From Candidatus Gorgyraea atricola (GTDB taxonomy: Bacteria > Omnitrophota > Gorgyraeia > Gorgyraeales > Gorgyraeaceae): a DNA stretch of 64,000 nucleotides. Within the stretch, counting starts at the first letter, position 1, and every line of letters begins with the position of its first letter. The stretch covers positions 94,907 to 158,906 of the forward strand of contig JAVCCW010000010.1 in assembly GCA_030765235.1 (NCBI GenBank). Reading direction: 5' to 3'. Of this stretch, positions 11,576-57,945 are shown one piece after another. Under the pieces are notes generated by a model that worked only from the letters and a program-made list of their open reading frames with translations, made no database searches and had not been told where the DNA came from. The translations under genes were made by a program, and so were the position numbers.

Positions 11576-11587
11576 ATAAATATCCAA

Positions 11588-11635
11588 GGTCCAGCCTCGG
11601 CTTTTTAGTAACAAAAAGCCGAGGCTGGACCTTAG
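11588..11635. terminator. Family G hairpin (aaggtccagcctcggcttttt / aaaaagccgaggctggacctt) downstream of HU gene
   Basis: Perfect stem read from sequence; T-runs on both sides; candidate bidirectional terminator. Confidence 0.55.
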
Positions 11636-13458: not shown

Positions 13459-16400
13459 CTAGTTTTTCTCAAATTTGATATGGTCGCGGCTTACGAATTC
13501 TTCTAGTTCGGTGAGCATGTCGTTGGTGACATTTACGAACAGGTCCTTGTCGACCTGGATGCGGTAGGCGCCGTTCTTCTTGGTGGAGACATTTAGGTAG
13601 ACAGGGGTAGTACCTTTGTGTCTTGCAAAAACAGTCTTTAATCTCTCGAGCATAGTCTCTTCCATGCCCAGCGAGATAAGATCAATGGAAATAGCCCGGG
13701 TAAAGCGTGTGCGTGCCTCCTCAATAGGAATGATCTCCTCGACTATTATCTTAGGACGGTCCTCCCTGAGATTTAGCCTGCCGCTCACAAACACAGCAAA
13801 ATTAGGCCTGATAAACTTTGAAACCTTCTTGTACGACGCTGGAAAAGCCAGGACCTCGACCTTGCCCTCCAGATCCTCTATCATCATAATAGCCATTCTC
13901 TCGCCAGTGCGCTTCGTGACCGTGCTCTTAACCTTATTGATAATGCCGCCAAACCAGACCTTTTGGCCATCCTTTAGATCCCTGAGTTCACTACTGTTAG
14001 CTGTTGAATATTCATTCAACTCCCTCTCGTACTTGGCAAGCGGGTGCCCTGTTATGTAAAATCCAAGCATCTCCTTTTCAAAATGAAGAAGCTGGCCCTC
14101 TGGCCATTCCTTTATATCTGGGGCCTCATCATGCATCTTTCTGTCATTAAAAAGCAGCATCTGGCCAGATGATTTTTCCTTCTGTATAGAGCTCGCTATG
14201 TCCATTGCCCTGGAAAGTATAACCATGAGCTGAGCCCTTTTAAAACCAAGGCTATCAAACGCGCCGCACTTTATAAGACTCTCCATCACCTTCTTATTTA
14301 CCAGGCGCGAATCCGTGTACTCGCAAAATTCACACAAAGACTTAAAGGCACCGTGCTCCTGTCTTGCCTGGATAATAGAATTTATAGCAGTCTGGCCCAC
14401 ATTTTTAACAGCACCCAGGCCAAAACGTATGGTGCTCTTTTCAACCATTGTAAAATTGGCAAAACTCTCATTTACATCAGGCGGCAGGATCTTCATGCCC
14501 ATCTCTTCTGCCTCGTTTATATACTCAACGATCTTGTCCGTATTATCTTTTTCGCTTGTTAGAAGCGCGGTCATGAACTCAACAGGGTAATTCGCTTTTA
14601 AAAACGCTGTCCTGTAGGAGATCATTGCGTACGCGGCAGAATGACTCTTATTAAATCCATACCCGGCAAAATGCTCTATGAAATTAAAGATCTTCTCAGC
14701 AATGCGCTTGTCGATCTTATTCTTCACAGCACCTTCAATAAACGCGCGGCGCTGCTGGTCCATTATCTCAGGCGTCTTCTTCCCTATCGCGCGGCGTAGA
14801 AGATCCGCCTGGGCAAGTGAAAAACCTGCCAGCTTAGAAACTATCATCATTACCTGTTCCTGATACACAATGATCCCGTATGTCGGCTTTAAGATAGACT
14901 CGAGCAATGGATGATCGTATCTTACATCCACTTCGCCGTGTTTTCGTTTCATAAAATCATCAAGCATGCCGCTTCCTATAGGACCAGGCCTATAAAGAGC
15001 CAAGAGCGCTACAATATCCTCGAACTCTTGAGGCTTTAACTTCTTTAGAAGATCCCTCATGCCTGAACTTTCTAACTGGAATATGCCCATTGTATGCGCG
15101 CGGCCAAAAAGCTTGTACGTCTTTGAATCATCTATTGGTATATCCTCGATATTTAATTTAATATTGTTTACCCTGTTTACTATCTTTATGGCCTCCTGGA
15201 TAACAGTGAGCGTCCTCAAGCCCAGAAAATCCATTTTTAAAAGACCTATCTTTTCGAGCGAACCCATGGCATAACCTGTTGAGATCTGACCATCCCCTGT
15301 CTTAAAAAGAGGTACGTGGTTTGATAGGACATCCTCGCTTATCACAACACCTGCGGCGTGAGTAGATGCGTGGCGTGTAAGGCCTTCGAGATGTCTCGAT
15401 GTATCAATAAGCTCTTTTATAATAGGATCTTTTTTGTAAAGGCCTTTGAGCTCTGGCTCTTGTTCAAGCGCCAGGTCCAACGTAATATTCGGATCCATTG
15501 GAACCATTTTGGCGATCTTGTCTACATCAGCGTAAGGCACATTCATTACCCTGCCGACATCCCTAAGGACGCCCCTTGCTGCCATTGTGCCAAATGTTAT
15601 GATCTGCGCTACATTATCCTGGCCATATTTCTTTATAACATAATCTATTACCTCACCCCTTCGCTCATAGCAAAAATCTATATCAATATCAGGCATGGTA
15701 ACGCGCTCACGATTCAAGAATCTTTCAAAAAGGAGATTGTATTTCAATGGATCGATGTCTGTTATGCCGAGACAGAAACTTACTATGCTTCCTGCCGCGG
15801 AACCCCTGCCAGGCCCGACTGCTATGCCCTTTTCTTTTGCAAAACTCACAAAATCCCTGGTGATAAGAAAATAACTCGTATACCCGGACTTATTGATTAC
15901 ATCCATTTCGTATTCGAGTCTTTGCCTTATCTCAGACGATGCGCCAGGATATTTCTTTTTTAGGCCCTGCTCGCAAAGATCCTTAAGGTATTTTTCGCGT
16001 GTCGTACCATCAGGCGCCACATAGTGCGGCAAATATGTCTTTGAAAAATCCAGTTCCAGATTACAGCGTTCTGTTATCTTTATGGTATTCTGGATCGCCT
16101 CAGGCACATCTTTAAAAAGAGCCTTCATCTCTTCAGGCGGCTTAAAATAAAACTGGTCTGTCTGCAGCTTCATGTGTTTTGGATCATCCAGGGTAGTCTG
16201 CGTCTGGATACAGAGAAGCGCCTCGTGCGCCCTGGCGCTGTCCTTACTAAGGTAATGCACGTCATTTGTCGCAACGAGCCCTATGTCCAGGGACCTGCCC
16301 AGCTTTATAAGGGTGGTATTTACGATCTCCTGTTCTGGGATGGAATTATTCTGGATCTCAAAATAGAAATTATCCTTACCTAAAATTTCGCGGTACTGGC

Positions 16401-16887
16401 CTGCTACCTCTTTTATTTTTGACTCTTTTTTGTTAATAGCAAGCTGCGCGCACTCGCCTTTAAGACAGGCTGAAAGCCCTATAAGGCCTTCTGAATATTT
16501 AGACAAGATCTCTTTGTCAATTCTCGGCTTATAGTAAAAGCCTTCCAGGTAGCCGATAGTAACGAGTTTCATCAGGTTCCTGTACCCGGTCTCGTCCTTT
16601 GCCAAAAGCACAAGATGATTCGATGTCTCGCCTCCGGCGTAAACAGTCTTATCGAGCCGGTTCTTTGGCGCTACGTAAACCTCGCACCCTATGATGGGTT
16701 TTACGCCATTCTGCATGCAGCTTTGATAGAATTCGATCGCGCCAAACATGTTGCCGTGGTCTGTCATCGCAACAGCAGGCATCTTCATACGCCTTGCGCT
16801 ATCAGTGAGTTTTTTTATTAGACATGCTCCGTCGAGGAGACTGTACTGCGTGTGGACATGGAGGTGTGTGAAGTCGGAATGAGGCAT
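13459..16887 (-). CDS. dnaE: DNA polymerase III alpha subunit
   Basis: 1142 aa; PHP domain start MPHSDFTHLHVHTQYSLLDGA; full-length DnaE architecture. Confidence 0.95.
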   Translation of the reverse strand: MPHSDFTHLHVHTQYSLLDGACLIKKLTDSARRMKMPAVAMTDHGNMFGAIEFYQSCMQNGVKPIIGCEVYVAPKNRLDKTVYAGGETSNHLVLLAKDETGYRNLMKLVTIGYLEGFYYKPRIDKEILSKYSEGLIGLSACLKGECAQLAINKKESKIKEVAGQYREILGKDNFYFEIQNNSIPEQEIVNTTLIKLGRSLDIGLVATNDVHYLSKDSARAHEALLCIQTQTTLDDPKHMKLQTDQFYFKPPEEMKALFKDVPEAIQNTIKITERCNLELDFSKTYLPHYVAPDGTTREKYLKDLCEQGLKKKYPGASSEIRQRLEYEMDVINKSGYTSYFLITRDFVSFAKEKGIAVGPGRGSAAGSIVSFCLGITDIDPLKYNLLFERFLNRERVTMPDIDIDFCYERRGEVIDYVIKKYGQDNVAQIITFGTMAARGVLRDVGRVMNVPYADVDKIAKMVPMDPNITLDLALEQEPELKGLYKKDPIIKELIDTSRHLEGLTRHASTHAAGVVISEDVLSNHVPLFKTGDGQISTGYAMGSLEKIGLLKMDFLGLRTLTVIQEAIKIVNRVNNIKLNIEDIPIDDSKTYKLFGRAHTMGIFQLESSGMRDLLKKLKPQEFEDIVALLALYRPGPIGSGMLDDFMKRKHGEVDVRYDHPLLESILKPTYGIIVYQEQVMMIVSKLAGFSLAQADLLRRAIGKKTPEIMDQQRRAFIEGAVKNKIDKRIAEKIFNFIEHFAGYGFNKSHSAAYAMISYRTAFLKANYPVEFMTALLTSEKDNTDKIVEYINEAEEMGMKILPPDVNESFANFTMVEKSTIRFGLGAVKNVGQTAINSIIQARQEHGAFKSLCEFCEYTDSRLVNKKVMESLIKCGAFDSLGFKRAQLMVILSRAMDIASSIQKEKSSGQMLLFNDRKMHDEAPDIKEWPEGQLLHFEKEMLGFYITGHPLAKYERELNEYSTANSSELRDLKDGQKVWFGGIINKVKSTVTKRTGERMAIMMIEDLEGKVEVLAFPASYKKVSKFIRPNFAVFVSGRLNLREDRPKIIVEEIIPIEEARTRFTRAISIDLISLGMEETMLERLKTVFARHKGTTPVYLNVSTKKNGAYRIQVDKDLFVNVTNDMLTELEEFVSRDHIKFEKN

Positions 16888-16893
16888 AAATAG

Positions 16894-17018
16894 AAAATCC
16901 CAAATCCCAATAATACCAATACTACCAAATAAATCCCAATTTCAAAATCCCAAACATGTGTTGGGGTTTGGGATTTTGGATTTATTTGGGATTTGGTAGT
17001 ATTTGGATTTGGGATTTA
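16894..17018. repeat. Family A palindromic repeat copy
   Basis: Near-identical to 586-705 and 18210-18334. Confidence 0.9.
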
Positions 17019-17022
17019 TATT

Positions 17023-18183
17023 TCATTTCCCCATCCCAATCCCCTGCGCTCTTTGCAGGAGTTTTCCTTCTGTCTTAATGGATGGGGCTATTATTATTTC
17101 GGTCAATTGCATTTCTTTTATATCTCTCGCGCCGACATTTCCCATCGAGGTCATTAGCGCGCCTACAAGATTTTGTGAACCATCATCGAGCTTTGCGGGG
17201 CCAAGTAAGATCTCTTCTAATGTCCCGGTCGTGCCCACGCGGATCCGCGTACCTCTGGGCAGGTTTGCATGCGGTGTGGCCATGCCCCAATGATATCCTT
17301 TTCCTGGCGCCTCTTGCGCCCTGGCAAACGCGGAGCCGACCATCACAGCATCTGCGCCGCTGGCAAAGGCCTTGCAGGTATCTCCGCCTGAATCCATGCC
17401 GCCGTCTGTAATAATCGGTATATATTTTCCTGTCTTCTTATGATAAAAATCTCGCGCTGCTGATGTATCTGAAGTAGCTGTGACCTGCGGTACACCTATG
17501 CCAAGGACGCCTCTTGTGGTGCACGCCGCGCCAGGCCCGATGCCGACCAGGATCGCGCTAGCCCCAGCCTCCATCAGCTCAAGCGCAACAGAATACGTAA
17601 CGCAGTTGCCCAATATAACAGGGATCTTCATCGATTTTATGAACTTGGCAAGATCAACTACTTTATATTCCTTAGACATATGATGCACACTTATCACTGT
17701 AGACTGGACTACAAATATGTCTGCGCCTGCATCCTGCGCAAGCTTACCAAAACGCTCTGCAGTCTGCGGAATCGTACTTACAGCCGCGGTCGCGTTCTTT
17801 TTCTTTATTTCCTTTATCCTCTTTGTAATGAGCTTTTCTTTTATAGGTTTAACATAAAGGGATTGCACGAGCTTTGTGGCCTCTTGCGGGCTTGCCTTTG
17901 CTATTTTTTTAAGTATCTCGTCAGGATTCTCATAACGGGTCTGCACGCCGTCCAGGTTTAAAACAGCCACGCCGCCGAGCTTACTCATCTCTACAGCAAA
18001 CTTCACATCCACCACGCCATCCATTGCAGCAGCAAGTATGGGTATCCTGTATTTCTTGCCTGCCAGCTCCCAACTTGTATCTACCTCGTTAGGATTTATC
18101 GTAACAGAACCAGGTACAAGAGCTATCTCATCAAATCCATAACACCTTCGCGCCTTTCTCCCTCTTCCAACCCACATACCCAT
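17023..18183 (-). CDS. IMP dehydrogenase-family protein without CBS pair (GuaB3-like)
   Basis: TIM-barrel IMPDH motifs (FDEIALVPG, ILAAAMDGV, GIGPGAACTTR). Start set to MGMWVGRG, which is preceded by AAAGGAGG. Confidence 0.65.
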   Translation of the reverse strand: MGMWVGRGRKARRCYGFDEIALVPGSVTINPNEVDTSWELAGKKYRIPILAAAMDGVVDVKFAVEMSKLGGVAVLNLDGVQTRYENPDEILKKIAKASPQEATKLVQSLYVKPIKEKLITKRIKEIKKKNATAAVSTIPQTAERFGKLAQDAGADIFVVQSTVISVHHMSKEYKVVDLAKFIKSMKIPVILGNCVTYSVALELMEAGASAILVGIGPGAACTTRGVLGIGVPQVTATSDTSAARDFYHKKTGKYIPIITDGGMDSGGDTCKAFASGADAVMVGSAFARAQEAPGKGYHWGMATPHANLPRGTRIRVGTTGTLEEILLGPAKLDDGSQNLVGALMTSMGNVGARDIKEMQLTEIIIAPSIKTEGKLLQRAQGIGMGK

Positions 18184-18209: not shown

Positions 18210-18334
18210 AAAATCCCAAATCCCAATAATACCAATACTACCAAATAAATCCCAATTTCAAAATCCCAAACATGTGTTGGGATTTGGGATTTTGGATTTA
18301 TTTGGGATTTGGTAGTATTTGGATTTTGGATTTT
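18210..18334. repeat. Family A palindromic repeat copy
   Basis: Near-identical to 16894-17018. Confidence 0.9.
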
Positions 18335-22312: not shown

Positions 22313-22420
22313 AGCGAAGGTTTCGTAAGGTTGTGTGAGGTTTCGTTAGGTTGCGTAAGGTTACATTATTGCAACTTCACGAAACATTACGAAACTTTAC
22401 GCAACTTCACGCAACCTCCA
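22313..22420. repeat. Family B palindromic repeat copy
   Basis: gcgaaggtttcgtaaggtt...cgcaacttcacgcaacctcc. Confidence 0.85.
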
Positions 22421-22472
22421 TAATATATAATTACACTAACTATATCACAGCCATTAATTATTGTCAAAAAAT

Positions 22473-22512
22473 AAAAACCCCGTTCCAAATTCTTAATTAA
22501 GAATTTGGAACG
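22473..22512 (-). terminator. groEL rho-independent terminator (perfect palindrome ccccgttccaaattcttaa/ttaagaatttggaacgggg + T-run)
   Basis: Perfect 19-bp stems followed by ttttt on the minus strand; preceded by a second hairpin at 22546-22577 (tgtaggtgaccctt/aagggtcacctaca). Confidence 0.7.
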
Positions 22513-22592
22513 GGGCACGGCCCGCGAGTTTGCGCGAGTTATCCACATTGTAGGTGACCCTTAAGGGTCACCTACAATTAGTTGTTTGCGTA

Positions 22593-27771: not shown

Positions 27772-27806
27772 TTTGCCGAAAAAGCCGAGGTCCAGCCTCG
27801 GCTTTT
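27772..27806 (-). terminator. rho-independent terminator after the ABC ATPase gene (family G hairpin + T-run)
   Basis: aaaaagccgaggctggacctcggcttttt on the minus strand. Confidence 0.65.
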
Positions 27807-28579
27807 TACCGCCTCACCAAAAACACATGCGGCCGGGATGTCAGGGGATTTTCTTTGACAATGACCCGGGTCTTGTAGACCTCTTCTATTGTCTTGTAAT
27901 CAAGGACCTCGCTTGGTGTGCCTTGTTTTTTTATCCGGCCCTCGCTCAATAATATTAATCTATCGCAATAAAGCGAAGCTAAGTTCAGATCATGCAATAT
28001 CGCAACTACTGTCAATTTTGATTCCTTGTTCAGCTTCTTTAATAGTGAAAATGTCTCTATCTGATGGCTTATATCAAGGTGTGTGGTTGGCTCGTCTAAA
28101 AACAAAACCCTTGGCTTTTGCGCAAGTGCCTTTGCAATGACAACCCTCTGACGCTCGCCACCACTCAGCTCATCTATAAATCTATCCCTCAGGTGTATAG
28201 CATCCACTTCTTCCAGTGCCTTAAATGCGATCCTCAGATCATCCTGAGATTCAAATCCTAATCTGCTCAAATAAGGTATACGGCCCATCAAGACTACATC
28301 CAGCACTTTAAATGGGAACATAAACAGCGCGTCCTGCGGCACTACTGCTATCAGCTTTGCTATCTCTTTTAAAGGTGTATCCTTTAGCCTTTTCTTCTGC
28401 AAATATATCTCGCCCTTAAAAGGCTTTAGCACCTTTGTAGCAGTACGCAAAAGCGTTGATTTGCCTGAGCCGTTCGGGCCGATTATGCCAATAAAATCCC
28501 CAGGATCGACACTAAAGGTCACATCCTTTAGGACCTCAGTACTCCCGTAACCACTCGCGACATCTAAAAAGTAAAGCAT
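27806..28579 (-). CDS. iron-siderophore/B12-type ABC transporter ATP-binding protein (BtuD/FecE-like)
   Basis: Walker A GPNGSGKST, signature LSGGERQR. Confidence 0.9.
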   Translation of the reverse strand: MLYFLDVASGYGSTEVLKDVTFSVDPGDFIGIIGPNGSGKSTLLRTATKVLKPFKGEIYLQKKRLKDTPLKEIAKLIAVVPQDALFMFPFKVLDVVLMGRIPYLSRLGFESQDDLRIAFKALEEVDAIHLRDRFIDELSGGERQRVVIAKALAQKPRVLFLDEPTTHLDISHQIETFSLLKKLNKESKLTVVAILHDLNLASLYCDRLILLSEGRIKKQGTPSEVLDYKTIEEVYKTRVIVKENPLTSRPHVFLVRR

Positions 28580-35795: not shown

Positions 35796-36026
35796 CTATT
35801 CTATTACTGCTAAAACATCGCCAACCTTAACAGTGTTACCTTCTTGTGCAACAATCTTCTTCAGCGTACCTGCGGCCTTTGACGGCACATTAAATGCTGC
35901 CTTATCAGTAGCCATCTCCACAAGCTCATCTCCTTCTTTTACTGCATCGCCTTCCTTAAAGTGCCAAAAAGACACGACTGCCTGATCCACGCCTTCTGTC
36001 AACTCCGGTAATCTTAATTCTGCCAT
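35796..36026 (-). CDS. stand-alone lipoyl/biotinyl-attachment domain protein
   Basis: 76 aa; EMATDKAAFNV lipoyl-lysine motif; adjacent to lipA/lipB. Confidence 0.75.
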   Translation of the reverse strand: MAELRLPELTEGVDQAVVSFWHFKEGDAVKEGDELVEMATDKAAFNVPSKAAGTLKKIVAQEGNTVKVGDVLAVIE

Positions 36027-36057
36027 ACTTCCTCCCCTTATTTTTTATTACTTACTT

Positions 36058-36187
36058 ACGTGGAGGTTACGTAAAGTTACGGAAGGTTTCGGAATGTTGC
36101 GTAAGGTTGTATTAAGAGCGTTGGAATCCATCGCTCTTGTAACCTTCGGTAACCTTCTCTAACATTCCGTAACCTTCGTAACCTCCA
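36058..36187. repeat. Family B palindromic repeat copy
   Basis: tggaggttacgtaaagttacggaagg...ccttcgtaacctcca. Confidence 0.9.
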
Positions 36188-36195
36188 TGTAGTAT

Positions 36196-37047
36196 TTACA
36201 TATAAGACGACCTCGTAAACGGGCTGCAGGAATGTTTCTTGAAGCCCAGCTCCTCTGCCCATCTTGAAAATTTAGTAAATTCCTCTGGCGCTAAAAATTC
36301 CTCGACCTCCAGGCAGCTCGGATCAGGCCGTAGATACTGGCCTATGGTAATTATTTCGCAGCCTGCTTTCCTTAAGTCCTCCATCGAGACTCGAACCTCG
36401 TCTCGAGTCTCGCCAAGCCCTACCATCAGGCCGCTCTTTGTTGTAACCTGGTTGCTCGCATACCTTATGAGATCCAATGATCTTTTATAATCTGCCTGCG
36501 GCCTGACTCTATTATATAATCTAGGTACGGTCTCTATATTATGCGAAAATATATCAGGTTTTGCAAGAATAACTTTATCAATTGCATAGCGCTTGCCAAG
36601 AAAATCAGGGACAAGCACTTCTATCCTTAAATCGCTGTTAGATTCCCTTAAGATCTTAATGCAATCTGCGAAATGGCTTGCGCCGCCATCCCCTAGATCA
36701 TCACGCGTAACAGAGGTTACGATCACACTGAGAAGCCCTAATCTTTTAACTGCATCTCTTATATCAAAGAGCTCTTTTTTGTCTGGCAATGACAATTTCT
36801 GCGCTGTCTCGATCGCGCAAAACCTGCAACTCCTGGTGCATCTATTGCCTAATATCAAAAATGTGCACTTGCGCCTTGAAAAACAGTCGTATATGTTAGG
36901 GCATTGCGCGCTCTGGCATACTGTATTAATATTTGAATCACGCAAAAGTTCCCTGAACTCTGCTGTATTCTTATCAATTCTTACTGACTGTCTCAGCCAA
37001 TAAGGGAATCTCTTTAAATGTCGAGATGAGTCTATTTTTAGCATCAT
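36196..37047 (-). CDS. lipA: lipoyl synthase
   Basis: CPNIYDCFSRRKCTFLILGNRCTRSCRFC cluster motifs. Confidence 0.95.
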   Translation of the reverse strand: MMLKIDSSRHLKRFPYWLRQSVRIDKNTAEFRELLRDSNINTVCQSAQCPNIYDCFSRRKCTFLILGNRCTRSCRFCAIETAQKLSLPDKKELFDIRDAVKRLGLLSVIVTSVTRDDLGDGGASHFADCIKILRESNSDLRIEVLVPDFLGKRYAIDKVILAKPDIFSHNIETVPRLYNRVRPQADYKRSLDLIRYASNQVTTKSGLMVGLGETRDEVRVSMEDLRKAGCEIITIGQYLRPDPSCLEVEEFLAPEEFTKFSRWAEELGFKKHSCSPFTRSSYM

Positions 37048-37600
37048 CCATGTCTATTTCGCGCTTCAGCAAACTTTTTAATGATGTGATCTCAACGCCT
37101 TCAATGCCACATGGCCTGATAAATGAAAAAGGCATAAGATCAGTGTTGATATTCATGGCCAAGCCGTGATACGTGACCCATTTTTTTACGCCTATGCCTA
37201 TGGAGCCGATTTTTTTATTGTCGGTCCATACACCTCTGAGTCCAGGTCTTTTTTCTGTAAAAATCCCGTATTGTGCTAAAAAAGCGCTTCCTATCTCTTC
37301 TAAAAACTCTAAAAATCTATGTATATCCCGACTCTCATTTTCCAGTTTAAAAATAGGGTACGCTATGAGCTGGCCAGGGCCGTGATATGTAACATCCCCA
37401 CCCCTGTCAGTCTGAACCACATGGATCTCGCGCCTAAATACATTCTGCTCTGAACCAGTTCTCCCTATTGTTATAACTGGGTTGTGTTCTGTTACGAGTA
37501 ACGTATCTTCACAAATACCCAGGGCAACTCTCTCTACGAATTCCCTCTGAAGCTGATATATCTCTGAAAAATCAGTTACACCCAAATCTATAACTCGCAT
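36974..37600 (-). CDS. lipB: octanoyltransferase
   Basis: 208 aa; LipB/LplA-type fold (..RTGSEQNVF..RGGDVTYHGPGQL..). Confidence 0.9.
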   Translation of the reverse strand: MRVIDLGVTDFSEIYQLQREFVERVALGICEDTLLVTEHNPVITIGRTGSEQNVFRREIHVVQTDRGGDVTYHGPGQLIAYPIFKLENESRDIHRFLEFLEEIGSAFLAQYGIFTEKRPGLRGVWTDNKKIGSIGIGVKKWVTYHGLAMNINTDLMPFSFIRPCGIEGVEITSLKSLLKREIDMDDAKNRLISTFKEIPLLAETVSKN

Positions 37601-37628
37601 AATGACTTGAACGGGCTAACGACCTCAG

Positions 37629-38849
37629 CTATTTGAACCTCACCCTATACGACTCTAAGTGCTTTGTTAATCCCTCTATCTTTGTGATCTTCTCGATCGC
37701 TTCTTTTTCTCTTTCAAGCGCCTTTTTGGAATATGCTATCGTGTGCGTGCTCTTAAGAAAAGACCTCACACTAAGACCTGAGAAAAACCTGGCTGTGCCG
37801 CCTGTTGGCAAGACATGGCTCGGACCTGCCACATAATCTCCTACGCATACAGGCGAATATGGCCCTATAAACACTGCGCCCGCGTTATTAATTAACTTCA
37901 AGACCCTGTTGGGGTTTTTTATAAACACCTCGAGATGCTCAGGCGCGATCCTATTTATGACCTCTGCTGCCTGCTGAAGATTTTTTGCCAGTACGATATA
38001 ACCCTTGCCTACTTCTTTTCTCATTGCGCGGGCGAATTTTTTTGATGTAGTAACAAGGATTGCAAGGCCCTTTAAATGTTCTGCCTGAGCCTGCATGTCT
38101 TCTATTACATAGTCTTTATCTGAAAACTGGTTCGCCAATATAACGACTTCGCTCGGACCTGCAAGCATGTCTATGTCAACATAACCATACACCTGACGCT
38201 TTGCCTCAGTCACATAATCATTGCCCGGGCCCACGACCTTATCCACCTTTGGTATAGTCTTTGTGCCAAACGCAAGGGCAGCTATTGCCTGCGCGCCTCC
38301 GACCTTATAAACCTCATCCACCTTTAAGAGATTTGCCACTGCGAGTATGTGGGGATCAACAGTGCCGAATTTTGTCGGCGGAGTCGCGAGTATTATCCTT
38401 TTCACGCCAGCTATCCTCGCAGGTAAAACGCTCATGTACACGCTCGAGACAAGCGGTGCTGTGCCTGCTGGTACATATATGCCGACGCTTTCAATAGGCC
38501 TAAAGATCTCGCCCAGCTGAATACCTTCCGCGTCTTTTATCTTCCATGGCCTAGGCAATTGTTTTCTGTGGAATTTCTCGATGTTCCCGATTATGGTTTT
38601 CAGGCTCGATATAAAACCTGTATCTATATTCTGATAGGAGCCATTGATCTCGTTTGCGCTTACCTTTAGGTCTTTTGGAGAGAGCTTTACCTTATCAAAT
38701 CTCCTGGTATACCTGATGACTGCCTTGTCACCATTCTCTCTCACGTCATCTACGATCCTGCGCACCTTTTCTGTTACGCGCTTTTTATTGCAATAATATC
38801 TCCCACAGAGTTTCTGTATTTCCTTGCTGGAAAGTCTCAAAATTTTCAT
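37629..38849 (-). CDS. hisD: histidinol dehydrogenase
   Basis: GGAQAIAALAFGT, VGPGNDYV, AGPSEVVILA motifs. Confidence 0.9.
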   Translation of the reverse strand: MKILRLSSKEIQKLCGRYYCNKKRVTEKVRRIVDDVRENGDKAVIRYTRRFDKVKLSPKDLKVSANEINGSYQNIDTGFISSLKTIIGNIEKFHRKQLPRPWKIKDAEGIQLGEIFRPIESVGIYVPAGTAPLVSSVYMSVLPARIAGVKRIILATPPTKFGTVDPHILAVANLLKVDEVYKVGGAQAIAALAFGTKTIPKVDKVVGPGNDYVTEAKRQVYGYVDIDMLAGPSEVVILANQFSDKDYVIEDMQAQAEHLKGLAILVTTSKKFARAMRKEVGKGYIVLAKNLQQAAEVINRIAPEHLEVFIKNPNRVLKLINNAGAVFIGPYSPVCVGDYVAGPSHVLPTGGTARFFSGLSVRSFLKSTHTIAYSKKALEREKEAIEKITKIEGLTKHLESYRVRFK

Positions 38850-41350
38850 AAATGCTCCTTTAGGACTTCTTGTGCTTTTTTTAATATTTTCTTTATGTCG
38901 ATATTAGCGCGGGCTCCTGCCTGGGCAAAATCTGGCCTGCCTCCACCTTTTATGCCAAAACTTGAGCCTATCTCATTCAATACCTTGACAGCATCCATGC
39001 CTGCCTGGACCCTGACAACCATTGAAAGCTTTCCGTCCTTTTCAGATACCAGGACAAAAATTGACTCCCTTATCCTGCCTTTTATTGTATCAGCTGTTTT
39101 TCTCAGCATAGCCATATCCACATTGCTGATCTCTGCAACAATAACATCGCGCCCTTTGATCTTCTTTATGTCTTTCAAAATCCCATCAATGCTTGAGGAA
39201 GCGAATCTATCACTGACAATATTCAAATCTTTCTCTATCTTCTTAAGCCTTTTTGTCAATTTTTCTATTTCTTTTAGTATATTATCTGGCGATGTCTTTA
39301 ATTCTTTCGCTATCTCTTTTACTAAGGCTATGCTTTCCTGGATCTTTTTATTCGCCGCGTCTCCTGTAACAGCCTCGATCCTTCTTACTCCGCCTGCTAT
39401 GGAAGACTCTGAGAGGATCTTAAATCTGATGATCTCTCCTGTATGCCTTACATGCGTGCCGCCGCATAATTCCTTGCTATATTCACCCACAGAGACCATT
39501 CTCACAGTATCCGCATATTTTTCTCCAAAAAGCGCGATCACGCCCTGCTTCTTTGCCTCTTCCAATAAAAGCTCTTTAACACACACCAGGCTATCCTCTT
39601 TTATTCTTTCATTCACAAGATCCTCTACCCTTGAAAGCTCCTCGCCTGTAAGCGCCTTAAAATGCGTGAAGTCAAATCTCAGATGATCTGGCGCGACCAA
39701 AGAACCAGCCTGCTTTACATGCTGGCCCAGCACCTTTCTTAAGGCATTATGCAAGAGATGTGTAGCTGTATGATTTTCTCTTACCTGGCCTCTACGTTTT
39801 ACATCTATCCTTGCCACTACTTTATCACCTGGTTTTAGCGCGACTGTTTTCATCTTTACCTGATGCTCGATCCTCCCGGCAAGATCAATTGCATTTGTAA
39901 CCTCTGCTATAACTTTTCCATCCTTGATCAATGCCCCAGTATCACCTACCTGGCCACCTTTTTCGCCATAAAAATTTGTCTTCTTCAAGAAAATAGAATC
40001 TCCTGAAACCTGCACAACTTCAGTCTCGAGTTCTTCTTCGTTTTCTACAAAAATACTTTCATCAGGCAATTTCAGGTTTGCGTCGCCTTTAAATATCGAA
40101 CCTTTTATCTTGCTGGATGCGCGTGACTTAATGCGCTGGTCTTTCATGCATTTTTCAAAACCCGGGATGTCTAGCTTTATACCCCTGACTCTTGCTATGT
40201 CTTGTATTAATTCTACAGGAAACCCATAAGTATCATAGAGTTTAAAAATAGCTTTCCCTGGAAGCACGCCTTTAGACTTAAAGGTCTCCTCTACCTCTTT
40301 CAGCCTCTCTTGACCAGCTTGGATAACGTTACTAAATCTTTTTTCCTCTTCCAATATTTCCTGCGCAATATATTCTCCGCGCTGTGTAAGTTCTGGATAT
40401 GGCCTCTTCATCTCCCCTGCAACCACAGGAACCAACTTATACAAAAAAGGCTCTTTAATGTCCATTGCCCTACCATGCCAAGATGCTTTTCGAATCAATT
40501 TACGAATAACATAGGCTCTCTCTTCATTAGATGGCGACACACCATCTCCAATCGCAAATGTAACTGCGCGTATATGATCAGCGATAGTATTAACAGTATT
40601 AGGATTGTGAGAACTTCCAGCAAATCCTTCTATCTTCTTAACTATCGGTTCAAACGAATCTATCTCGAAATTCGTCTTTTTCCCCTGCATGACCCTTGTG
40701 ATCCTCTCAAGTCCCATGCCTGTATCTATGTTCTTGCCTGGCAGCGGGTCTAATTTGCCGTGATCCTTTCTGTCAAACTGCGTAAATACAAGATTCCATA
40801 TCTCCACACCATCTGGGCCGCCATAAAAAATCTCAGAGCATGGACCACATGGCCCGTTCGGACCTTTGCTTGGCGCGCTCGCTGGCCAGAAATTATCTTT
40901 TTCTCCCAGCTTTAGGATCTTTTTCGTAGGTACTTTTATTTCATTCTTCCAGATATCGTACGCCTCGCTATCATCTTTATACACTGAGACCCATAGATCC
41001 TTTTCCTTAAGGCCTAACTCCTTTGTCAGAAACTCCCATGCCCACTCTATTGCCTCTTTCTTAAAATAGTCGCCGAACGAAAAATTTCCAAGCATCTCAA
41101 AGAACGTATGATGATCAGGCGTCTTTCCCACATTCTCAAGGTCGCCTGTGCGCAGGCACTTCTGGCAGGTCGCTGCCCTTCTCGGGCCCTTCACTCTACC
41201 AAGAAACTCTTGTTTAAATTGATTCATACCCGTGCCTGTAAAAAGAAGGCTGGGGTCATTGGCAGGAACGAGTGAATCGCTTGGATAGATCTTATGTCCA
41301 CGTTCCTCGAAGAACTTCAAGAAACGATCTCTGATTTCGTCTGCTGTCAT
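38846..41350 (-). CDS. alaS: alanine--tRNA ligase
   Basis: 834 aa; N-terminal FLKFFEERGHKIYPSDSLVP..FTGTGMNQFK. Confidence 0.95.
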   Translation of the reverse strand: MTADEIRDRFLKFFEERGHKIYPSDSLVPANDPSLLFTGTGMNQFKQEFLGRVKGPRRAATCQKCLRTGDLENVGKTPDHHTFFEMLGNFSFGDYFKKEAIEWAWEFLTKELGLKEKDLWVSVYKDDSEAYDIWKNEIKVPTKKILKLGEKDNFWPASAPSKGPNGPCGPCSEIFYGGPDGVEIWNLVFTQFDRKDHGKLDPLPGKNIDTGMGLERITRVMQGKKTNFEIDSFEPIVKKIEGFAGSSHNPNTVNTIADHIRAVTFAIGDGVSPSNEERAYVIRKLIRKASWHGRAMDIKEPFLYKLVPVVAGEMKRPYPELTQRGEYIAQEILEEEKRFSNVIQAGQERLKEVEETFKSKGVLPGKAIFKLYDTYGFPVELIQDIARVRGIKLDIPGFEKCMKDQRIKSRASSKIKGSIFKGDANLKLPDESIFVENEEELETEVVQVSGDSIFLKKTNFYGEKGGQVGDTGALIKDGKVIAEVTNAIDLAGRIEHQVKMKTVALKPGDKVVARIDVKRRGQVRENHTATHLLHNALRKVLGQHVKQAGSLVAPDHLRFDFTHFKALTGEELSRVEDLVNERIKEDSLVCVKELLLEEAKKQGVIALFGEKYADTVRMVSVGEYSKELCGGTHVRHTGEIIRFKILSESSIAGGVRRIEAVTGDAANKKIQESIALVKEIAKELKTSPDNILKEIEKLTKRLKKIEKDLNIVSDRFASSSIDGILKDIKKIKGRDVIVAEISNVDMAMLRKTADTIKGRIRESIFVLVSEKDGKLSMVVRVQAGMDAVKVLNEIGSSFGIKGGGRPDFAQAGARANIDIKKILKKAQEVLKEHL

Positions 41351-49354: not shown

Positions 49355-49388
49355 AAAAATAGGGACGCTCTCCCGCCCCTCAAAATAA

Positions 49389-49421
49389 CCTGACACTTTA
49401 AGTCATACTTAAAGTGTCAGG
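49389..49421. repeat. Family C short palindrome (cctgacactttaagtcatacttaaagtgtcagg)
   Basis: Perfect 13-bp stems. Confidence 0.8.
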
Positions 49422-50150
49422 TTAAGGTTGCCTAATGCCGTCTTTTGTGATGATTAGGGTCTTTTTCTCTCCTTTTTTACCAGGGGTGCCGAGGTTTTTT
49501 CCGTTGAAGGTCAGGGTTACGCCACCAGCATTGCCCAGCTCCAGATCTATCTGCTTTTTTGCTTCCCAACTATCAGAAGCGCCCTTCTTTAATATGCCTC
49601 TAAACAAGAGCTCTTTGCCGCTGGTGACCTGGACCCACGTGTTGTAACGCGCTGCAAGTTCGACCTTAAAACTCTCTGCTACCGCCGCAACCCCGGAGGT
49701 TGCCGTGCTCGCAACCTCCGGGGTTGCGACAACGGCTTGCCCCTTATGTTTAGTGAAAAGATTCCGTATAAACCTTCCCACCTGCACAAAGCCAAAGGCA
49801 AGCAAATACACGCTGAAAATAGTCACAAGCCCGAGTCCGATCTGGCGCTTGTGTTTTAAGAACCAGTCACTTTTGGACTTTTCAGGTTTTAAGGCTAACT
49901 GAGATCCGGGCTTTTTTTCTCCACTTGACAGAAATTCTTTTACTATTCTTTCTTCAAGCGCCCCCAGGAACTGCGAATAGGATTTAATAAAGCCTCTTGC
50001 GTAAAAAGGGTCCGCTGTCTTTAAGATGCTATCTTCTTCTATTGTAGAGATTATTTTCTTAGGTATGCGCGTTCTTTCTGAGACATCTTCTATGGAGAGC
50101 TGCCTTGTTTCGCGGATCTTCTTGAGTGTTTTTCCAAGTGATTCAGGCAT
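49422..50150 (-). CDS. rodZ: RodZ-like cytoskeleton protein (HTH + TM + C-terminal DUF4115)
   Basis: N-terminal XRE HTH LKKIRETRQLSIEDVSERTRIP; single TM; C-terminal domain. Contains GC-rich palindrome at 49687-49727. Confidence 0.7.
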   Translation of the reverse strand: MPESLGKTLKKIRETRQLSIEDVSERTRIPKKIISTIEEDSILKTADPFYARGFIKSYSQFLGALEERIVKEFLSSGEKKPGSQLALKPEKSKSDWFLKHKRQIGLGLVTIFSVYLLAFGFVQVGRFIRNLFTKHKGQAVVATPEVASTATSGVAAVAESFKVELAARYNTWVQVTSGKELLFRGILKKGASDSWEAKKQIDLELGNAGGVTLTFNGKNLGTPGKKGEKKTLIITKDGIRQP

Positions 50151-50151
50151 A

Positions 50152-50236
50152 ATCGTTTAGCCCGTTAGCCCGTTGCCCGTTAGCCCGTTGACCCATTAAC
50201 GGGCAAACGGGCTAAACGGGCAACGGGCTAAACGGA
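50152..50236. repeat. Family D palindromic repeat (cccgttagcccgttgcccgtt.../...aacgggcaacgggctaaacgg)
   Basis: Half copy at 52413-52452. Confidence 0.85.
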
Positions 50237-55821: not shown

Positions 55822-56772
55822 CTATTTTTTACCCCTGCGGTCAAGCAATTTCTTCACGACCAACATATATCCCAATATCTTTAACTCATATAATACTATA
55901 AAAGGTAGATTCAATAATATGCCACGTAATGAATCATTCTTTTTTATGCATAAGTATCTATTCTTAATATACCTTCTCTTCAACTCCTCAGAAATACGGT
56001 GGACTAGGGGTTGGGGTGTCCTGTGAGTGGGAGGATCCACACCGGGCGGAGGGGCCCACGAACAGGATACCCCGACCTCTAGTCCACCCGCAGTTCCCCC
56101 TCTCACATGATACGCTAGTGCCTTCGGGTTATAATATGCTTTCCAATCCTTCTTCTGTGCTCTCCAACATAAGTCTAGATCTTCGTAATACATGTCAAAT
56201 CTCTCGTCAAAATATCCATATTTATCCCTTACATTCTTCAGCATGCTTTTTCTTAAAAAAGCGCATGCGCCGCTGGCTCCAAATACATATCCTGGCTCAT
56301 CATACTGCCCCTTGTCTACCTTTCCATAGCCTCTCTCGACTGGCTTTCTATTCTTGCCTAAAAATAATCCTGTTGAATCTATGGTCTTTTTATCCATTCT
56401 TAATATTTTTCCGCTTACCATGCCGATTCGCGTATCAAGACCTATCGCCAATAGAACCTGCCTCAGATAATCTTTGTCCAACACGCAGTCGTTATTCAGG
56501 CATAAGACAAAATTCCCTTTTGACGCATCAATGCCCTGATTCTGCGCTTTACAAAAAAGAAGGTTGCTGGTATTTCTGATCAATTGAACATCCGAATAAT
56601 ACATGGCTACCATCTCGATACTGCCATCGGTAGAGGCATTATCTACAACAATAGTCTCAATATCCTGAAAATTCTGTCCCCTTACGGAGTCCAGACACTG
56701 CCTCAACAAATCTTTCCTGTTGTAATTGACAATTATTATTGATATCATAGATTTAATTATATCATGAATCAA
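55822..56772 (-). CDS. GT2 glycosyltransferase carrying an in-frame 93-nt GC-rich palindromic insertion
   Basis: N-terminal IIIVNYNRKDLL..VVDNASTDGS; C-terminal ..RRYIKNRYLCIKKNDSLRGILLNLPF.. is normal GT2 tail. Between them lies a foreign 31-aa segment AGGLEVGVSCSWAPPPGVDPPTHRTPQPLVH. Confidence 0.8.
   Translation of the reverse strand: MIHDIIKSMISIIIVNYNRKDLLRQCLDSVRGQNFQDIETIVVDNASTDGSIEMVAMYYSDVQLIRNTSNLLFCKAQNQGIDASKGNFVLCLNNDCVLDKDYLRQVLLAIGLDTRIGMVSGKILRMDKKTIDSTGLFLGKNRKPVERGYGKVDKGQYDEPGYVFGASGACAFLRKSMLKNVRDKYGYFDERFDMYYEDLDLCWRAQKKDWKAYYNPKALAYHVRGGTAGGLEVGVSCSWAPPPGVDPPTHRTPQPLVHRISEELKRRYIKNRYLCIKKNDSLRGILLNLPFIVLYELKILGYMLVVKKLLDRRGKK
55997..56089. repeat. GC-rich palindromic element inside GT2 CDS (arms cggtggactaggggttggggtgtcctgt / acaggataccccgacctctagtccaccc)
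   Basis: 93 nt = 31 codons; locally very GC-rich against an AT-rich host gene; reads through in frame. Confidence 0.85.
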
Positions 56773-57945
56773 ACAGAAACCAAACCCTTATCACCCCTCA
56801 TATTTATTCCCTTATTATCCCTTATCTTCATCCGGCCTTTCATCTCTGGCCTTGCATACCCGGCCTTTGAGATGTTTTATGAAAACATCTTGATATTCCT
56901 TGCTATCATGATCTTATTCATGGAAAGATCCAGATTTAAACTGTATCCTAAAAATTTCAGTAACTTCCCTGTAATATTCCTATTATTTGCCTATGCTATT
57001 TCAACTATATTCTCGATCAACATACAAAACTCTATTAGAGAAACGCTTAAATTCATCAGTTTCTTTGCCATATTCTTTATGGTTTCCCAATCTGATGAAA
57101 AACAAAAGAAACTGCTGCTAAAGACCATTGTCATAGCTGCTTCAATAATAAGTCTGTATTCAATATACCAGTACTTCTGGGGATATGGACGCACACTAGA
57201 TTATCTACAAAAAACCAACAGCGATTTTCTCTCCACCTCTTCCTATGCCCGCGACATCCTGCTCTCAAAACGCGCAATAGGAACATTTCCCTCTCCGAAT
57301 ATCTTAGCTGGATACTTGATAATAATGTTTTTTCTCGCAATGCACTTACAGCGTCGCATTTCGCTAGTTCTAATCACTGCTGCGTTAATCCTCACTAAAT
57401 CCATGGGCGCGTGGTTAAGTCTTATTGCTGCACTGATCTACCTCGGTAACTTCGTAAGTTACCCAAAGGGTAACTTACGAAGTTACCGAGGTAAGTTAAT
57501 GGCAGTATTAATCGTAGCTATACTATGTTTTATCCTCGTGAATCGCTGGGAACGCCTGATGAACATGGAAAACCCGCAAAATTCCATTACCCAGCGCCTA
57601 AACTACTGGCGCACAGCCATAGCCATAATAAAAGATCAGGCTATTTTTGGAGTCGGACCTGGTAATTTTCAAGAAGTCTTCTTGGGGCATAAGGTAGGCT
57701 TAGGCACAGATACAAGATACGCGCATAACATATTTCTTCACATATGGTCAGAAATAGGTATCTTAGGTCTTGTAGGAGTCTTTTACCTTATTATTAATTT
57801 TTTCAGAAAAGCCAGATCTCAATCCAGCTATAGATTTATACTGTGCGGCGGGCTTGTGTTTATCCTGCATAATCTCATAGATAATACCTTTTTCATGCCT
57901 CAAGCTGCACTCTTCTGGTGGATATTACTGGCTTCTAAGGAATAG
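56764..57945 (+). CDS. O-antigen ligase/polymerase family membrane protein (Wzy_C domain)
   Basis: 393 aa polytopic membrane protein. Contains in-frame perfect palindrome at 57441-57491. Confidence 0.7.
   Translation: MNQTETKPLSPLIFIPLLSLIFIRPFISGLAYPAFEMFYENILIFLAIMILFMERSRFKLYPKNFSNFPVIFLLFAYAISTIFSINIQNSIRETLKFISFFAIFFMVSQSDEKQKKLLLKTIVIAASIISLYSIYQYFWGYGRTLDYLQKTNSDFLSTSSYARDILLSKRAIGTFPSPNILAGYLIIMFFLAMHLQRRISLVLITAALILTKSMGAWLSLIAALIYLGNFVSYPKGNLRSYRGKLMAVLIVAILCFILVNRWERLMNMENPQNSITQRLNYWRTAIAIIKDQAIFGVGPGNFQEVFLGHKVGLGTDTRYAHNIFLHIWSEIGILGLVGVFYLIINFFRKARSQSSYRFILCGGLVFILHNLIDNTFFMPQAALFWWILLASKE
57441..57491. repeat. Perfect 24-bp-arm palindrome inside O-antigen ligase CDS (cctcggtaacttcgtaagttaccc-aaa-gggtaacttacgaagttaccgagg)
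   Basis: 51 nt = 17 codons encoding LGNFVSYPKGNLRSYRG; words ttacgaag/cttcgtaa relate it to family B. Confidence 0.85.

Follow-up and report, generated by a model that had tools for sequence, protein, structure and literature searches.

The window, that is the whole stretch of 64,000 nucleotides that was analysed, carries on the minus strand, at 49422-50150, a gene for a RodZ-like protein of 242 aa which is 100 % identical to a protein of Candidatus Gorgyraea atricola (Omnitrophota). The RodZ architecture is complete and comprises an N-terminal HTH domain (Pfam HTH_25, residues 8-66, 49953-50129), one hydrophobic membrane segment (residues ~104-125, 49776-49841, predicted from the translation and the ortholog alignment) and a C-terminal RodZ_C domain (Pfam, residues 165-227, 49470-49658), all encoded on the minus strand.

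A palindrome lies in the part of the gene between the membrane segment and RodZ_C. Its core at 49686-49728 (minus strand) is a perfect 18-bp stem with a 7-nt loop (GAGCACG in the gene sense) and encodes RodZ residues ~142-155, ATPEVASTATSGVA. On the plus strand it reads GCAACCCCGGAGGTTGC (49687-49703), the CGTGCTC loop and GCAACCTCCGGGGTTGC (49711-49727). The preliminary description had placed here a perfect 17-bp hairpin (49687-49727), translated within the low-complexity linker of RodZ and extended outwards by an imperfect stem. Its position in the linker and its translation are as described, the imperfect extension was seen on RNA folding of the region, and the true perfect stem is one pair longer.

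The hairpin is exceptional in its surroundings. The 17-mer arm gave four matches with up to three mismatches in the window, all of them the two arms themselves (shuffle mean 0.07), and by our own estimate ~5e-5 perfect hairpins of at least 17 bp are expected by chance in 64 kb. The sense RNA folds with -48.2 kcal/mol (z = -6.6), a stability reached by none of 200 shuffles, and the G+C content around the hairpin is 0.61-0.72 versus 0.42 for the whole window. Each arm is nearly palindromic in itself (14 of 17 positions), hence the two arms also form a direct 24-nt repeat.

The stem is followed by a T run on neither strand and the terminator scan made no call, which leaves a terminator or promoter role unsupported by the scan. 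No Rfam family matched at gathering score, and the permissive scan returned only generic hairpin-to-miRNA noise. A Dif/Xer site next to ftsK, an integron attC site and an operator for the RodZ HTH were set aside on anatomy alone.

Both spacers flanking rodZ, the ftsK-rodZ spacer (50154-50231) and the one towards the downstream radical SAM/TRAM gene (49386-49424), carry one hairpin each. The hairpins of these spacers are unrelated in sequence between the sister lineages (L001, L006, L009 and L012), and one sister lineage has no ftsK-rodZ spacer. In the window the hairpin of the ftsK-rodZ spacer is composed of GCCCGTT-type heptamer repeats.

The hairpin in RodZ orthologs

The region linking the membrane segment to RodZ_C was freely variable in length and sequence among 25 RodZ orthologs, and only the closest relatives resembled the window. 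The ortholog alignment proposed in the preliminary description showed that the segment has no counterpart in any RodZ ortholog of 59 % identity or below; conservation in unrelated lineages was not seen.

The element is inherited across three lineages. In the P0002 lineage (RodZ protein 92 % identical) the hairpin is GCAACCTCGGAGGTTGC-CAGCACG-GCAACCTCCGAGGTTGT, and the P0003 lineage (84 %) has the same hairpin sequence, with a perfect end. Between the window and these two lineages, T is replaced by C in one arm and A by G at the partner position of the other (T:A to C:G). Both substitutions of this compensated pair are non-synonymous, changing Ser to Pro and Glu to Gly. Within the hairpin, third codon positions differed at 0-1 of 12-14 sites, in comparison to 28-34 % across the remaining gene (binomial p = 0.007-0.08).

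In the P0004 lineage (77 %) the hairpin is absent and GTAACCCCAGAGGTCGC, at the homologous place, matches one arm in 14 of 17 positions. The tree built from rodZ and ftsK distances was ((window, P0002), (P0003, P0004)), therefore either the element is older than the four lineages and P0004 lost half of it, or the linker was moved by recombination. A derived linker, consisting of NLFTKHKEQA and the element (window ~49660-49770; compared with L006 and L009), is common to P0003, the window and P0002; the linker of P0004 is K-rich and looks ancestral. The occurrence of the window/P0002 type of linker in P0003, despite its sisterhood with P0004, suggests that the linker recombined or changed in parallel.

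Family A, a dispersed palindromic element

The genome-wide copy search, the other check proposed in the preliminary description, identified the rodZ hairpin as one copy of a dispersed palindromic element, which also occurs in-frame in linkers and loops of other proteins. The core GCAACCYCGGAGGTTGC-loop-GCAACCTCCGRGGTTGC was found at at least 28 other places in related genomes and metagenomes, mostly extended by ACCTCCG/CGGAGGT to a 24-bp stem; the family is called A here. When one genome per species was scanned with a strict pattern, five loci were found. One of them was the rodZ copy of a P0002-type MAG. The same MAG held a second, intergenic copy directly after the gpsA stop codon, with arms identical to those of the window, the same loop and a stem extended to 23 bp by TCCTCC/GGAGGA. 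The remaining three loci were intergenic and belonged to other MAGs. A looser scan of metagenome contigs gave 68 loci, some high-GC matches among them being unrelated tandem peptide repeats; approximately 24 of the loci came from one sample, the one that holds the P0003 rodZ contig. Copies collected by exact pattern are biased toward perfect cores. The unbiased copies are only those found via protein orthology or at RAYT loci, and these are also perfect or nearly so.

The consensus of family A is ~53-57 nt long and reads ACCTCCG-CAACCYCGGAGGTTGCC-(3-6 nt loop)-GGCAACCTCCGRGGTTG-CGGAGGT. The alignment of 28 non-redundant copies resolves it as nnACCTCCG-CAACC[C/T]CGGAGGTTGCC-loop-GGCAACCTCCG[G/A]GGTTG-CGGAGGTnn with a 24-bp stem, and each arm contains a small palindrome of its own, ACCTCCG..CGGAGGT. 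Two of the pairs involve positions left free by the search: pair 15:44 was C:G in 16 copies, U:A in 11 and mismatched in one, and the outer pair 6:53 was U:A in 20, C:G in four and G:C in two. Altogether 97 % of the alignment cells were paired and six pairs had changed on both sides, a covariation reached by none of 500 shuffles. Almost no internal mismatches were available for comparing G:U with A:C in the family A stems, a contrast that would tell constraint on the RNA from constraint on the DNA, pattern-found copies being biased toward perfect cores. GTAG or CGTC end tags were absent from both ends of the consensus.

The rodZ copy of the window belongs to this family, with 64.5 bits (E 4e-17) against the family A covariance model (R1), and is the only family A copy in the 64-kb window, an intragenic one. 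The covariance model and the family alignment give it a full footprint of 57 nt (49679-49735, minus strand). The outer stems of the rodZ copies are degenerate but recognisable in the alignment, the one in the window being GTTGTCG/CGGCGGT versus ACCTCCG/CGGAGGT in the consensus.

The dispersed copies also bear on a purely local origin of the rodZ palindrome, by tandem duplication of a self-complementary 24-nt unit (ATSEVAST) or by a template switch in a low-complexity linker, with no mobile family involved. The nearly palindromic arms, which form a direct 24-nt repeat as well, and the single TPEVA unit of the P0004 lineage would fit such an origin. It was dropped on finding the dispersed copies and is very unlikely: an identical 41-nt core with the same loop stands at many unrelated loci, the outer stems conserved at those loci persist in rodZ in degenerate form, the rodZ sequence scores highly against the family model, and copies flank a transposase gene (see below).

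Approximately 20 of the 28 independent family A loci (~70 %) are intergenic and sit in tight spacers, where the element typically starts 5-17 nt past the stop codon of one gene and ends 12-30 nt ahead of the start of the next. In about half of the same-direction spacers the outer 3' stem CGGAGGT lies 7-12 nt upstream of the next start. At five loci (L046, L057, L071, L073 and L077) the intergenic element provides a Shine-Dalgarno-like GGAGG, which is paired with CCTCC inside the hairpin, and the stop codon of the preceding gene often directly adjoins the 5' outer stem or overlaps with it. A bias of loop orientation relative to transcription was rejected, the split of 10 versus 6 not being significant (p = 0.45).

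The other 7-8 loci (~30 %) are in-frame within real genes, with Pfam domains that flank or span the copy. The hosts encode HypF, an LpxL-Elm1 fusion (L028), NadE (inter-domain linker, in two lineages), an MFS transporter (central loop), a 4Fe-4S (Fer4) protein and AlaRS (L082). Another of these loci, at 381-436 of L053, is ambiguous; there the end of a GT4 glycosyltransferase ORF is connected through the copy with a coding region downstream, without an intervening stop codon, and this junction may be a read-through or fusion made by the stop-free element. All six frames of family A are free of stop codons, and the frame in which it is read differs between host genes.

The contig with the AlaRS copy is syntenic with 35797-40947 of the window at 81-89 % identity, and alaS of the window has no element. 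Between the two nadE copies there is one difference in 53 nt, against 9-11 % in their flanks (p = 0.02). In rodZ, alaS and the Wzy gene described below, native codons were replaced by the element rather than simply added to. Clean insertion boundaries or target-site duplications could not be recovered because the host loops are too diverged.

According to the preliminary description, GC-rich palindromes appeared to target tolerant linker regions of proteins. The presence of copies in-frame in linkers and loops of several proteins agrees with the second half of this statement; targeting is not supported, and ~70 % of the copies are intergenic. The in-gene copies would rather be survivors of a filter, i.e. 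those that kept the frame and fell in a tolerant loop, than targeted insertions.

The diversity of hosts likewise bears on selection at the protein level, in which the ATSEVAST/ATSEVA repeat would be a useful linker motif and the DNA palindrome its by-product. The LpxL-Elm1 protein, where the element is read in the same frame as in rodZ, does contain the same peptide, ATSEVASTATSEVA. NadE, HypF, the MFS transporter and AlaRS read the same DNA in other frames, giving unrelated peptides, the Ser to Pro and Glu to Gly changes in RodZ were accepted between lineages while the pairing was kept, and in Wzy the stem is conserved and the peptide is not. Such selection is hardly credible as the origin of the palindrome.

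A second element in the window and the RAYT genes

The next-best match of the family A model in the window (55.7 bits) is at 57438-57494 on the plus strand, in a Wzy_C (O-antigen-ligase-like) gene (56764-57945, plus strand). The element was also found in the hairpin scan; it has a perfect 26-bp stem and a 3-nt loop, lies in-frame and encodes YLGNFVSYPKGNLRSYRGK. It is the only other in-ORF hairpin of the window and its G+C content is 46 %. The preliminary description had linked the rodZ hairpin with a GC-rich palindrome in a GT2 gene. Scans for perfect and imperfect hairpins found no palindrome within a GT2 gene; the Wzy_C gene adjoins a GT2 gene, and its hairpin is not GC-rich.

The core of the Wzy element, AACTTCGTAAGTTACC, represents a sister family, B, with at least six further copies on metagenome contigs that bear family A, and no further copies found in the 64-kb window. 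Family B is open in just one frame per strand, the one which Wzy uses. In the P0002 lineage the Wzy ortholog bears an element at this site too; its outer stem is that of the window copy and its core is CAACCGCGTAGGTTGCC. Five stem pairs differ between the two orthologs, all of them changed on both sides and one by paired transversions, and the encoded peptides differ, GNFVSYPKGNLRSYRGK against GNRVGCQNGNLRGCRGQ. A family B core inside an orthologous outer stem hints at conversion of the Wzy copy from another copy. Two other Wzy orthologs are without the element, and the 57-nt element stands in place of 42 nt of native sequence.

Several other palindromes were noted in the window. An AT-rich palindrome, CCAAATAAATCCCAATTTCAAAATCCCAA / TTGGGATTTGGGATTTTGGATTTATTTGG, is present in three copies (611-675, 16925-16989 and 18241-18305) and constitutes another dispersed hairpin family. 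Contig L050 is syntenic with 14417-17557 of the window at 66-70 % identity and has, at its positions 2371-2425, an A-like palindrome in the spacer in which the window has the AT-rich palindrome at 16925-16989; the same spacer is thus occupied by different hairpin families. Hairpins with common GGnCCnGnCCTCGGCTTTT...AAAAGCCGAGG arms occur at 2735-2782 (the glyQ-glyS spacer), 11586-11633 and 27779-27807, and similar ones in the ftsK-rodZ spacer of L006 and at 6216-6261 of L019. A cluster of palindromes at 22337-22578 includes an imperfect one (22337-22418) and two perfect ones without a loop, of 19 bp (22478-22515) and 16 bp (22547-22578).

Family A is associated with a transposase gene in related organisms. 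On the metagenome contig L062 two family A copies (433-473 and 1168-1208) flank an ORF of 213 aa (507-1148), whose product matched Pfam Y1_Tnp with 27.6 bits (cut-off 23) and the NCBIfam model of the REP-associated tyrosine transposase (REP_Tyr_transpos) with E 3e-14 and 53 bits, below the curated cut-off of 80. A search of the PDB with the single sequence gave no match. With a profile of its homologs the best PDB match was E. coli TnpA-REP (4ER8; E 3.4e-6), ahead of IS200-type TnpA, and the HUH (PTHxH) and YIxxNPV motifs aligned between the profile and 4ER8. L062 is a short metagenome contig, unlinked to any rodZ-bearing genome.

Homologs of the L062 RAYT (3391 matches) are abundant in Omnitrophota, and one of them is from Ca. 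G. atricola. Related perfect palindromes were present on both sides of the gene at all five Omnitrophota RAYT loci inspected. The Ca. G. atricola locus (L089), the sole RAYT locus seen in this organism, pairs with a palindrome family other than A. Its gene is flanked at 15-58 and 714-757 by a third family, C (CCTGTACRGACGCGTTGTC, CCTGTAC[A/G]GACGCGTTGTC), the two copies of which differ by one compensated pair; family C is absent from the 64-kb window. At three more RAYT loci the gene lies between perfect palindromes; CAACCTCGTAGGTTGCC is an example of their cores and is similar to the Wzy core found in the P0002 lineage. In a contig of 67 % G+C an A-like palindrome lies next to a RAYT homolog.

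The stem differences between orthologous in-gene copies are double in 6 of 6 cases (rodZ 1 of 1, Wzy 5 of 5), and a conserved stem would also be compatible with a function of the hairpin in rodZ. The repeat origin would still hold, the copy having been co-opted to slow the ribosome during membrane insertion (it lies ~15 codons past the membrane segment), to influence mRNA stability or processing, or to serve as a binding site by which RAYT or another protein tunes expression. Third codon positions are more conserved in the hairpin than in the remaining rodZ, the sole rodZ stem difference was compensated at the cost of two amino-acid changes, the orthologous nadE copies are almost identical between diverged flanks (1 change in 53 nt vs 9-11 %), and all the Wzy stem differences are double with a peptide that is not conserved. 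A function is nevertheless improbable. In the sister lineage P0004 the hairpin is missing or half-deleted, none of the more distant RodZ orthologs has it, the same element occurs in unrelated genes in all three frames as well as between genes, its loop orientation is unbiased (10 versus 6), and it neither resembles a terminator nor matches an Rfam family. Arm-to-arm templating or conversion from other copies could explain perfect stems without any function.

Comparison with REP/REPIN-RAYT systems and interpretation

REPINs have been described as inverted pairs of REP sequences forming a long hairpin, with compensatory changes and with RAYT genes flanked by copies (PMC3337134, PMC3116915), and the pairing of each repeat family with its own transposase is a hallmark of REP/REPIN-RAYT systems (PMC3337134, PMC3116915, PMC5581495). 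The Omnitrophota elements resemble those of Pseudomonas and E. coli in having two inverted short palindromic units that form one long hairpin with an alternative two-hairpin fold, in the compensatory changes of the arms, and in their many dispersed copies, situated mostly in short spacers near gene 3' ends. Several sequence families are likewise present, each with its own copy-flanked Y1 (HUH) transposase gene, and the copy number differs strongly between sister lineages.

They differ in belonging to a new phylum and a new sequence family, in the very short spacer (3-7 nt) and the perfect stems of 17-28 bp, and in the ~30 % of independent loci that are inside genes. Family A has no GTAG or CGTC tag, but this tag defines two super-families (PMC3733652) and not REPs as such. 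Another difference is the GGAGG/CCTCC outer stem, which in about half of the spacers between same-direction genes puts the motif as far from the following start as a Shine-Dalgarno sequence would be. The Omnitrophota RAYT, furthermore, scores below the NCBIfam cut-off.

Intragenic REPs themselves are known. Singlets and dimers of the GTAG/CGTC super-families were found in Opitutus terrae, Rickettsia conorii and others, wholly within known genes of unrelated proteins, adding ~20-30 residues, and were read as tolerated insertions (Di Nocera et al. 2013, PMC3733652). Family A is similar in that REP dimers lie entirely within genes of unrelated proteins and different in sequence family and host phylum; the Omnitrophota orthologs also show stems that are kept by double changes while the peptide drifts. 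In-frame palindromes are known as well from the Rickettsia palindromic elements (RPE), which occupy fold-compatible places in many unrelated housekeeping genes (PMC10969869). Both kinds of element are palindromic repeats read in-frame at tolerant places of unrelated genes. RPEs are mostly ~100-150 bp long, restricted to Rickettsia and read in one frame with a conserved peptide, and to our knowledge they have no dedicated transposase. Family A, at ~55 nt, in Omnitrophota, read in all frames and linked to RAYT, is set apart from RPE by this description. In the literature searched, no description of such repeats or of REP/RAYT systems in Omnitrophota was found. Family A adds a new family, from a new phylum, to an already known kind of element.

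The dispersed copies, the RAYT gene flanked by copies and the palindromes at all five RAYT loci lead to the conclusion that the rodZ hairpin represents a family A REP doublet (REPIN-type) fixed in-frame within the gene, a reading to which we assign a probability of about 85 %. The preliminary description foresaw neither the REP/RAYT link nor that three sister lineages have the element. Presence and absence between relatives, i.e. in the syntenic alaS genes, among the Wzy orthologs and as the single-arm remnant in P0004 rodZ, suggest that the element is mobile. By analogy with TnpA-REP and IS608, RAYT would move it as a single-stranded hairpin. A copy would have inserted into the disordered RodZ linker, just outside the membrane, or have taken the place of part of it. 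It probably survived there because family A is free of stop codons in six frames, because the frame of the host gene stayed intact and because nearly any sequence is tolerated in the linker. Erosion of the outer stem would have followed. The rodZ element is most likely a tolerated passenger, expected to add ~14-18 linker residues to the protein and a very stable hairpin to the mRNA.

The perfect stems need explaining, because the orthologous copies are old relative to the 8-15 % divergence of their flanks. The inner 18 bp of the rodZ copy are presumably still perfectly complementary because the two arms evolve together, which might proceed by templated correction between the arms, conversion from other family members or selection acting on the hairpin. 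In quasi-palindromes, template switching or conversion between inverted-repeat arms transfers a change in one arm to its partner. Such a process would yield the all-double stem differences observed in rodZ and Wzy; being mutational, it explains the upkeep of the stem and not the source of the element.

A more far-reaching reading, which we consider unlikely, is that the stems are kept perfect by an active process within essential genes, even at a cost to the encoded peptide, either as functional hairpin modules (in DNA or mRNA, serving the cell or RAYT) or through a dedicated arm-to-arm correction. Such modules could be protein binding sites, ribosome pause sites or, building on the GGAGG/CCTCC outer stem, means of translational coupling. 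If the stems are maintained in this way, the Omnitrophota RAYT-REPIN system would regularly supply proteins with new linker segments, and its mechanism would be a candidate general one for RPE-like in-frame palindromes.

With the hairpin interpreted as a fixed copy of a REPIN-type repeat, the odd -48 kcal/mol structure in the middle of a cell-shape gene is explained, and REP/RAYT systems are extended to Omnitrophota. In the rodZ, nadE and Wzy orthologs the palindromy of the DNA is conserved while the encoded amino acids drift, which bears on the persistence of the element and on what moves RPE-like in-frame palindromes. For the annotation of these genomes it carries a warning, since short GC-rich linker segments in Omnitrophota proteins may be repeat-derived.
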